The notes under the pieces: generated by a model
What the model saw: only the letters and a program-made list of their open reading frames with translations
Database searches by the model: none
What the model was told of the DNA's origin: nothing
Assembly: GCF_009931435.1 (NCBI RefSeq)
Contig: NZ_CP043414.1
Length of the DNA: 64,000 bases
Reading direction: 5' to 3' (one strand)
DNA from: Escherichia coli
GTDB taxonomy: Bacteria > Pseudomonadota > Gammaproteobacteria > Enterobacterales > Enterobacteriaceae
Program-made: the position numbers and the translations under genes
Shown here: positions 2,242 to 2,445 of the stretch, in pieces
Numbering within the stretch: position 1 is the stretch's first letter
Layout: the number at the start of each line of letters is the position of its first letter

Positions 2242-2276
2242 AGGGCGCGCATATTAACTTTGTAACGTCATAGAGT

Positions 2277-2445
2277 CAAAGAAAAAGGCAGCCTGTGGTT
2301 GCCTTTTGCCAATAATTCGCACACATTGCGGGTTACTGCTTTATTTTCGTTCAGTGCTGATAACGAACATCAACCTGCAAAACGAAGCGCATAGTTTAAA
2401 ATGGCTATCATCAATACGCTATATCTGATGGAAAAAAATATGCCT
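2277..2445 (-). ncRNA. sraB: possible SraB small RNA in the yceD leader region; approximate coordinates
   Basis: From memory, SraB maps between yceF and yceD, co-oriented with yceD. No boundary can be read from sequence alone. Confidence 0.25.

Follow-up and report, generated by a model that had tools for sequence, protein, structure and literature searches.

The small RNA gene sraB in the divergent yceD/yceF spacer of Escherichia coli and its shorter relatives in other Enterobacterales

The reference for the small RNA SraB is the gene of E. coli K-12 MG1655 (b4418, otherwise pke20, psrA4 or psrD; NC_000913.3), an ncRNA annotated at 1146589-1146757 (+), between yceF (1146011-1146595, -) and yceD (1146794 onward, +), and represented in Rfam by family RF00077. 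Northern blots and dRNA-seq in the K-12 and Salmonella literature document a discrete small transcript, whose level is repressed more than 4-fold by ppGpp in late stationary phase in Salmonella and rises about 5-fold in E. coli after replication inhibition. A 2010 report, as cited elsewhere, reportedly linked sraB to egg-albumen resistance in S. Enteritidis; no validated SraB target or phenotype in E. coli was found in the literature searched. Its described protein partner is ProQ, a FinO-domain chaperone that recognizes terminator hairpins (PMC5393179, PMC7367173). SraB is a ProQ ligand that is strongly enriched with the protein and forms with it a 1:1 complex; its contacts are with the FinO domain, with the linker and with the C-terminal domain of ProQ (PMC5393179, PMC7367173, PMC12714785, PMC8464044), and binding of K-12 SraB to ProQ has been shown both in vitro and by co-immunoprecipitation (PMC5393179, PMC7367173).

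The window analysed here, a stretch of 64,000 nucleotides, belongs to the E. coli chromosome, and its positions 2100-2600, which span the yceD/yceF gap, are matched in 5424 of 5426 complete E. coli genomes, with an identity of at least 99% in 5305 of these complete genomes. On the minus strand, yceD (1720-2241) is an ORF of 173 aa, identified from the RefSeq annotation of matching genomes and from homologs; its product is a DUF177, 23S rRNA accumulation protein and the gene heads yceD-rpmF. The ORF list and the same annotation place rpmF at 1495-1668 (-) and plsX at 344-1414 (-), and the first 92 codons of fabH occupy 276..1 (-), running to the window edge, so that the operon order yceD-rpmF-plsX-fabH given in a preliminary description of this DNA is borne out by the ORF positions. 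On the plus strand, yceF (2440-3024) is a frame of 194 aa that starts from an ATG at 2440 according to both ORF list and annotation, and encodes a Maf-family m7GTP pyrophosphatase. The gap between the two divergent genes, 2242-2439, measures 198 bp, a figure that was given in the same description and is exact. On the far side of yceF, between its end and the convergent end of rluC, lie two REP-like palindromes (3033-3104), namely GCCGGATGC...GCATCCGGC at 3033-3059 and GGCCTGATGCGGCGTAAACGCCTTATCAGGCC at 3073-3104; in an E. coli-like locus the corresponding region yields sub-threshold Rfam matches to the REP-derived naRNA4.

This gap almost certainly houses sraB, a small RNA gene already known from enterobacteria, which occupies the minus strand and is read in the direction of yceD. 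In an Rfam scan of the whole window, RF00077 was matched at 2446..2278 (-) over model positions 1-169 of 169, with a score of 209.8 bits (E 6.8e-44) for a gathering threshold of 130 bits. K-12 b4418 maps to the same place, giving a long form of 169 nt at 2278..2446 (-), with start and end positions transferred from K-12 by alignment (window position = 1149035 minus the K-12 coordinate). As in K-12, the first 7 nt of yceF (2440-2446) are overlapped by sraB on the opposite strand, and 36 nt separate the 3' end of sraB from the ATG of yceD. Over 321 aligned bases the window and K-12 differ at two, one of them synonymous in yceF and the other, the single difference within SraB, at window position 2365 (RNA position 82), in the loop of hairpin 2.

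The preliminary description had put SraB in the divergent spacer, a placement that agrees with the full-length Rfam match and with a K-12 gene of the same geometry; alignment with the annotated K-12 gene puts sraB nowhere else relative to yceD and yceF. The coordinates given there had been called approximate, and they are: the gap is the right place, but the RNA at 2278..2446 runs 7 nt into yceF and leaves out 2242-2277. The strand, which had not been given, is the minus strand, co-directional with yceD, and the promoter and terminator, both left unmapped, can be placed (terminator at 2307..2278, starts at 2446 and 2386). The presence of sraB between yceD and yceF is already catalogued and the finding is an ordinary one; it matters little beyond confirming the placement known from the K-12 annotation and adding strand and boundaries. 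A small-protein reading of the same DNA was considered and rejected. The minus strand offers only a 31-aa ORF with a GTG start that lies inside antisense yceF, and a 9-codon AUG frame in hairpin 2 that has no Shine-Dalgarno sequence and whose sequence is not conserved in Citrobacter or Salmonella.

Rfam matches are also found elsewhere in the window. The autoregulatory RNase E 5' UTR element rne5 is matched over its full length at 4307-4643 (+) with 260.1 bits, directly upstream of rne (4668-7853), and there are matches above threshold to the PyrC leader at 26374-26423 (+; 68.7 bits), to ES056 at 45691-45782 (+; 119.7 bits) and to an 85-nt tRNA at 51382-51466 (+). A further match above threshold, to the Yersinia antisense RNA family Ysr251 at 60130-60323 (+; 192.8 bits), probably reflects conserved coding sequence underneath.

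The main SraB transcript is probably shorter than the 169-nt annotation of sraB; dRNA-seq places its start 60 nt downstream of the annotated one. A re-analysis of dRNA-seq and Cappable-seq data locates the SraB start at K-12 1146649, which is 60 bp into the annotated gene (PMC7967276, text and Table S1), and yceF starts at K-12 1146625 and 1146700 (PMC7967276, Table S1). Carried over to the window, these correspond to 2386 for SraB and to 2410 (proximal) and 2335 (distal) for yceF; no coordinates of the form 11466xx or 11467xx turned up in the Cappable-seq supplement. The start at 2386 defines a short form of 109 nt (2278..2386, -) and is preceded by a -10 box, TAAACT, at 2393..2398 (-). This box lies within the block CATTTTAAACT. 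The TTAAACT core of that block shows no variation among 14 Enterobacterales, and the remainder is nearly invariant. The proximal yceF promoter has its own -10 box, TAAAAT, at 2397..2402 (+), placed from the sequence, the yceF starts and the conserved block, and the two boxes overlap by 2 bp, back to back on opposite strands. Upstream of the annotated 5' end at 2446 there is a -10-like TAAAAT at 2452..2457 (-), inside yceF codons, which in the 14-sequence alignment is carried only by E. coli and E. albertii. The published start, the conserved -10 box and the confinement of structure to the short form together favour the 109-nt RNA as the conserved structured form, and the 169-nt form would be an Escherichia-specific extension or a minor product. 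On the yceF side, translation from an in-frame ATG at 2401 (+) would lengthen YceF to 207 aa, the longer form chosen by gene callers in two of the related loci (L124 and L125); since this ATG is upstream of the proximal start at 2410, it is usable by distal-start transcripts only.

The short form folds into three hairpins with a free energy of -33.1 kcal/mol (z = -2.86 against shuffles) and an MFE structure identical to the centroid, whereas the 60-nt 5' extension shows no gain in folding over shuffled sequence (z = +0.33). Rfam hairpins 2 to 5 are all recovered in the MFE fold. When the Rfam structure is counted over the 14-locus alignment, 87.5% of cells are paired, compared with 38-44% when partners are slid by 1-3 columns, and pairs changed on both sides number 11 across the 14 loci, a figure reached in 6 of 500 shuffles. 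Support is unevenly distributed: helices 2-5 are paired in 80-100% of cells, but helix 1 (Rfam hairpin 1; 2407..2429, -), which exists in the 5' extension of the long form only, is weakly supported, with 62.5% of cells paired across taxa. The large hairpin 2 (2346..2386, -) folds well on its own with 6 flanking nt (2340-2386; -14.1 kcal/mol, z = -3.28) and shows both-sided changes at four pairs. In hairpin 3 (2312..2336, -) the inner stem, CGCA/UGCG, is kept in 14/14 loci with 100% of cells paired, including an A-U to U-A flip in Pectobacterium and Ewingella. The RNA ends in an intrinsic terminator (2278..2307, -), identified by fold and covariation, in which the stem AAAAGGCA.CC/GG.UGCCUUUU at 2307..2283 is followed by a UCUUU tail to 2278; 92% of its cells are paired and three of its pairs are changed on both sides. 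The stem contains a 1x1 mismatch, which is why a simple terminator scan did not report it. The window SraB has in this way the consensus secondary structure of the family, closed by a terminal intrinsic terminator.

The remaining 36 nt of the gap, 2242-2277, adjoin yceD and lie outside SraB. They belong to the yceD promoter (2242..2279, -), recognized by a promoter scan and by conservation in 14 loci, which consists of a -35 box TTGACT (2279..2274), a 17-bp spacer and a -10 box TAATAT (2256..2251). The -10 box is followed by GCGCGCC, and the ATG comes 10 nt past it with no Shine-Dalgarno sequence. In 14/14 loci the two hexamers are unchanged, as is the sequence that runs from the -10 box to the ATG, and the spacer between the hexamers varies at a few positions. 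The mRNA of yceD, a gene described as having no 5' non-coding leader (PMC4378010), would be leaderless or nearly so, with a start deduced from the sequence and from this one statement. The G+C-rich stretch after the -10 box appears to resemble, by analogy, that of stringently controlled ribosomal promoters. Since the terminator tail of SraB overlaps, by its last 2 nt, the -35 box of this separate promoter, SraB is best regarded as a transcription unit of its own, wedged in between two divergent promoters, and not as a yceD leader.

How much of this arrangement is shared was assessed on loci collected by two routes. A 15-base pattern, CCCGCNATGTGNGCGAA, scanned over 298 Gb of genome contigs returned 120 loci, 117 of which were chance matches; the three real SraB loci, one from E. 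albertii and two from Citrobacter, score 199.7 bits and 162 and 150.6 bits, respectively, in Rfam. Further relatives, gathered via YceD homologs and contigs carrying exact protein matches, came from Salmonella, Klebsiella, Enterobacter, Cronobacter, Buttiauxella, Erwinia, Pectobacterium and Ewingella, together with two further Enterobacterales records, and the divergent yceF/yceD arrangement is present in all loci from this second route. Full Rfam SraB matches at the same position are found in E. albertii, Citrobacter and Salmonella (spacer of 197 bp and 199.1 bits in the latter). In Klebsiella, Enterobacter and more distant genera the spacer shrinks to about 140 bp and the scores, 36-78 bits, stay below the threshold of 130; a SraB-like stretch of ~111 nt is found at about 1353-1464 in the loci L133, L134 and L123 to L130. 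The 14-sequence alignment reveals a block that begins at the terminator tail, takes in the yceD promoter and ends with the start codon. The terminator and the inner stem of hairpin 3 are present in all 14 aligned loci, but the ~56-nt block 2332-2387, which holds hairpin 2, is found only in Escherichia, Salmonella and Citrobacter and is absent in nine loci with shorter spacers. One locus, L123 (AP025685.1, 2551430-2554951), is labelled Salmonella enterica serovar Choleraesuis by NCBI; its YceD is only 87% identical to that of E. coli, its genome measures 4.26 Mb and its spacer is short and devoid of hairpin 2, in contrast to the long spacer of the Salmonella-labelled L132, and the organism label looks doubtful.

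These comparisons tentatively suggest an ancestral RNA core of ~52 nt (hairpin 3 and terminator), driven from an invariant -10 box that stands back to back with that of yceF, and ending in a terminator fused to the -35 box of a leaderless, stringent-type yceD promoter. The 169-nt E. coli SraB may consist of this core, an inserted hairpin limited to Escherichia, Salmonella and Citrobacter, and an upstream start confined to Escherichia. If so, what is conserved would be a local link between the transcription of yceF, of SraB and of yceD-rpmF, and any role in trans would come second.

Whatever its ancestry, SraB would be expected to act by base pairing with the help of ProQ. Only one target is visible from the sequence, namely yceF, although targets in trans elsewhere in the genome would be equally possible. 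SraB overlaps the yceF mRNA on the opposite strand, as a cis-antisense RNA does: complementarity extends over the ribosome-binding site and start codon of yceF (2430-2446) in the long form, and over 52 nt of the yceF 5' UTR from the distal start at 2335 in the short form. Against an effect on yceF stand the reports that yceF transcripts are barely detectable where SraB is abundant, and that transcription of sraB does not respond to one yceF promoter (PMC7967276). Antisense control of yceF is a possible primary role for SraB, to which we would give a rough and rather low weight. An action in trans on mRNAs elsewhere, dependent on ProQ and with the yceF overlap arising only from tight gene packing, is plausible, if still short of probable. 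It would account for the strong ProQ enrichment and the engagement of all ProQ domains, for the conservation of hairpin 3 and of the linker sequences of the RNA beyond the needs of a terminator and for the response of SraB to ppGpp and replication stress; it has to contend with a literature in which, as far as searched, no target is reported, and with the fact that most Enterobacterales can do without the large hairpin 2.

Two other explanations look to the DNA and to yceD. SraB could mainly be a by-product, its conserved parts serving as a bidirectional promoter for yceF and as a terminator that shields the leaderless yceD promoter against transcription coming in from upstream. The most invariant elements are indeed the overlapping pair of -10 boxes and the terminator tail together with the adjoining yceD promoter, whose -35 box the tail overlaps, and the RNA body between these invariant blocks varies by the 56-nt block. 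This is nevertheless unlikely, for compensatory changes preserve the stem of hairpin 3, the terminator stem co-varies and SraB is an abundant RNA to which ProQ binds specifically. More improbable still is that SraB is a terminated yceD leader, that is, an attenuator in which read-through of the terminator controls yceD-rpmF, even though SraB points the same way as yceD and stops 36 nt short of it. Two promoters for yceD, p1 and p2, are said to have been described by Tanaka et al. in 1989, as cited in other papers, and would fit with such control. As a main reading the leader was rejected since an invariant promoter belonging to yceD itself follows the terminator, and the lack of a Shine-Dalgarno sequence in a gene described as leaderless means that read-through transcripts would translate yceD poorly. 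We retain the view of SraB as an independent RNA that would pair with its targets with the help of ProQ, in cis or in trans.

For annotators, the practical points are that the 169-nt annotation is probably too long for the main RNA, that 36 nt of the gap are yceD promoter and that the long-form Rfam model misses shorter homologues in Klebsiella, Enterobacter and more distant Enterobacterales.

Set beside the systems already described, the window gene is SraB of RF00077 with one loop base changed from K-12; strand relative to yceD, the 7-nt overlap with yceF and the 36-nt distance to yceD are shared, and nothing material differs. The short SraB-like element of Klebsiella, Enterobacter, Cronobacter, Buttiauxella, Erwinia, Pectobacterium and Ewingella has the position and the -10 block of SraB and has hairpin 3, terminator and yceD promoter in common with it, but it lacks the ~56-nt hairpin 2 block, scores 36-78 bits and would produce an RNA predicted at ~52 nt from the conserved start. 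A looser likeness is to FinP and other antisense ligands of FinO-domain proteins, which, like SraB, are structured RNAs that end in an intrinsic terminator and bind a FinO-domain protein; SraB is also encoded antisense to the 5' region of a neighbouring gene, as in the FinP class. There is no sequence relationship between FinP and SraB, however, and the effect of SraB on yceF is putative.
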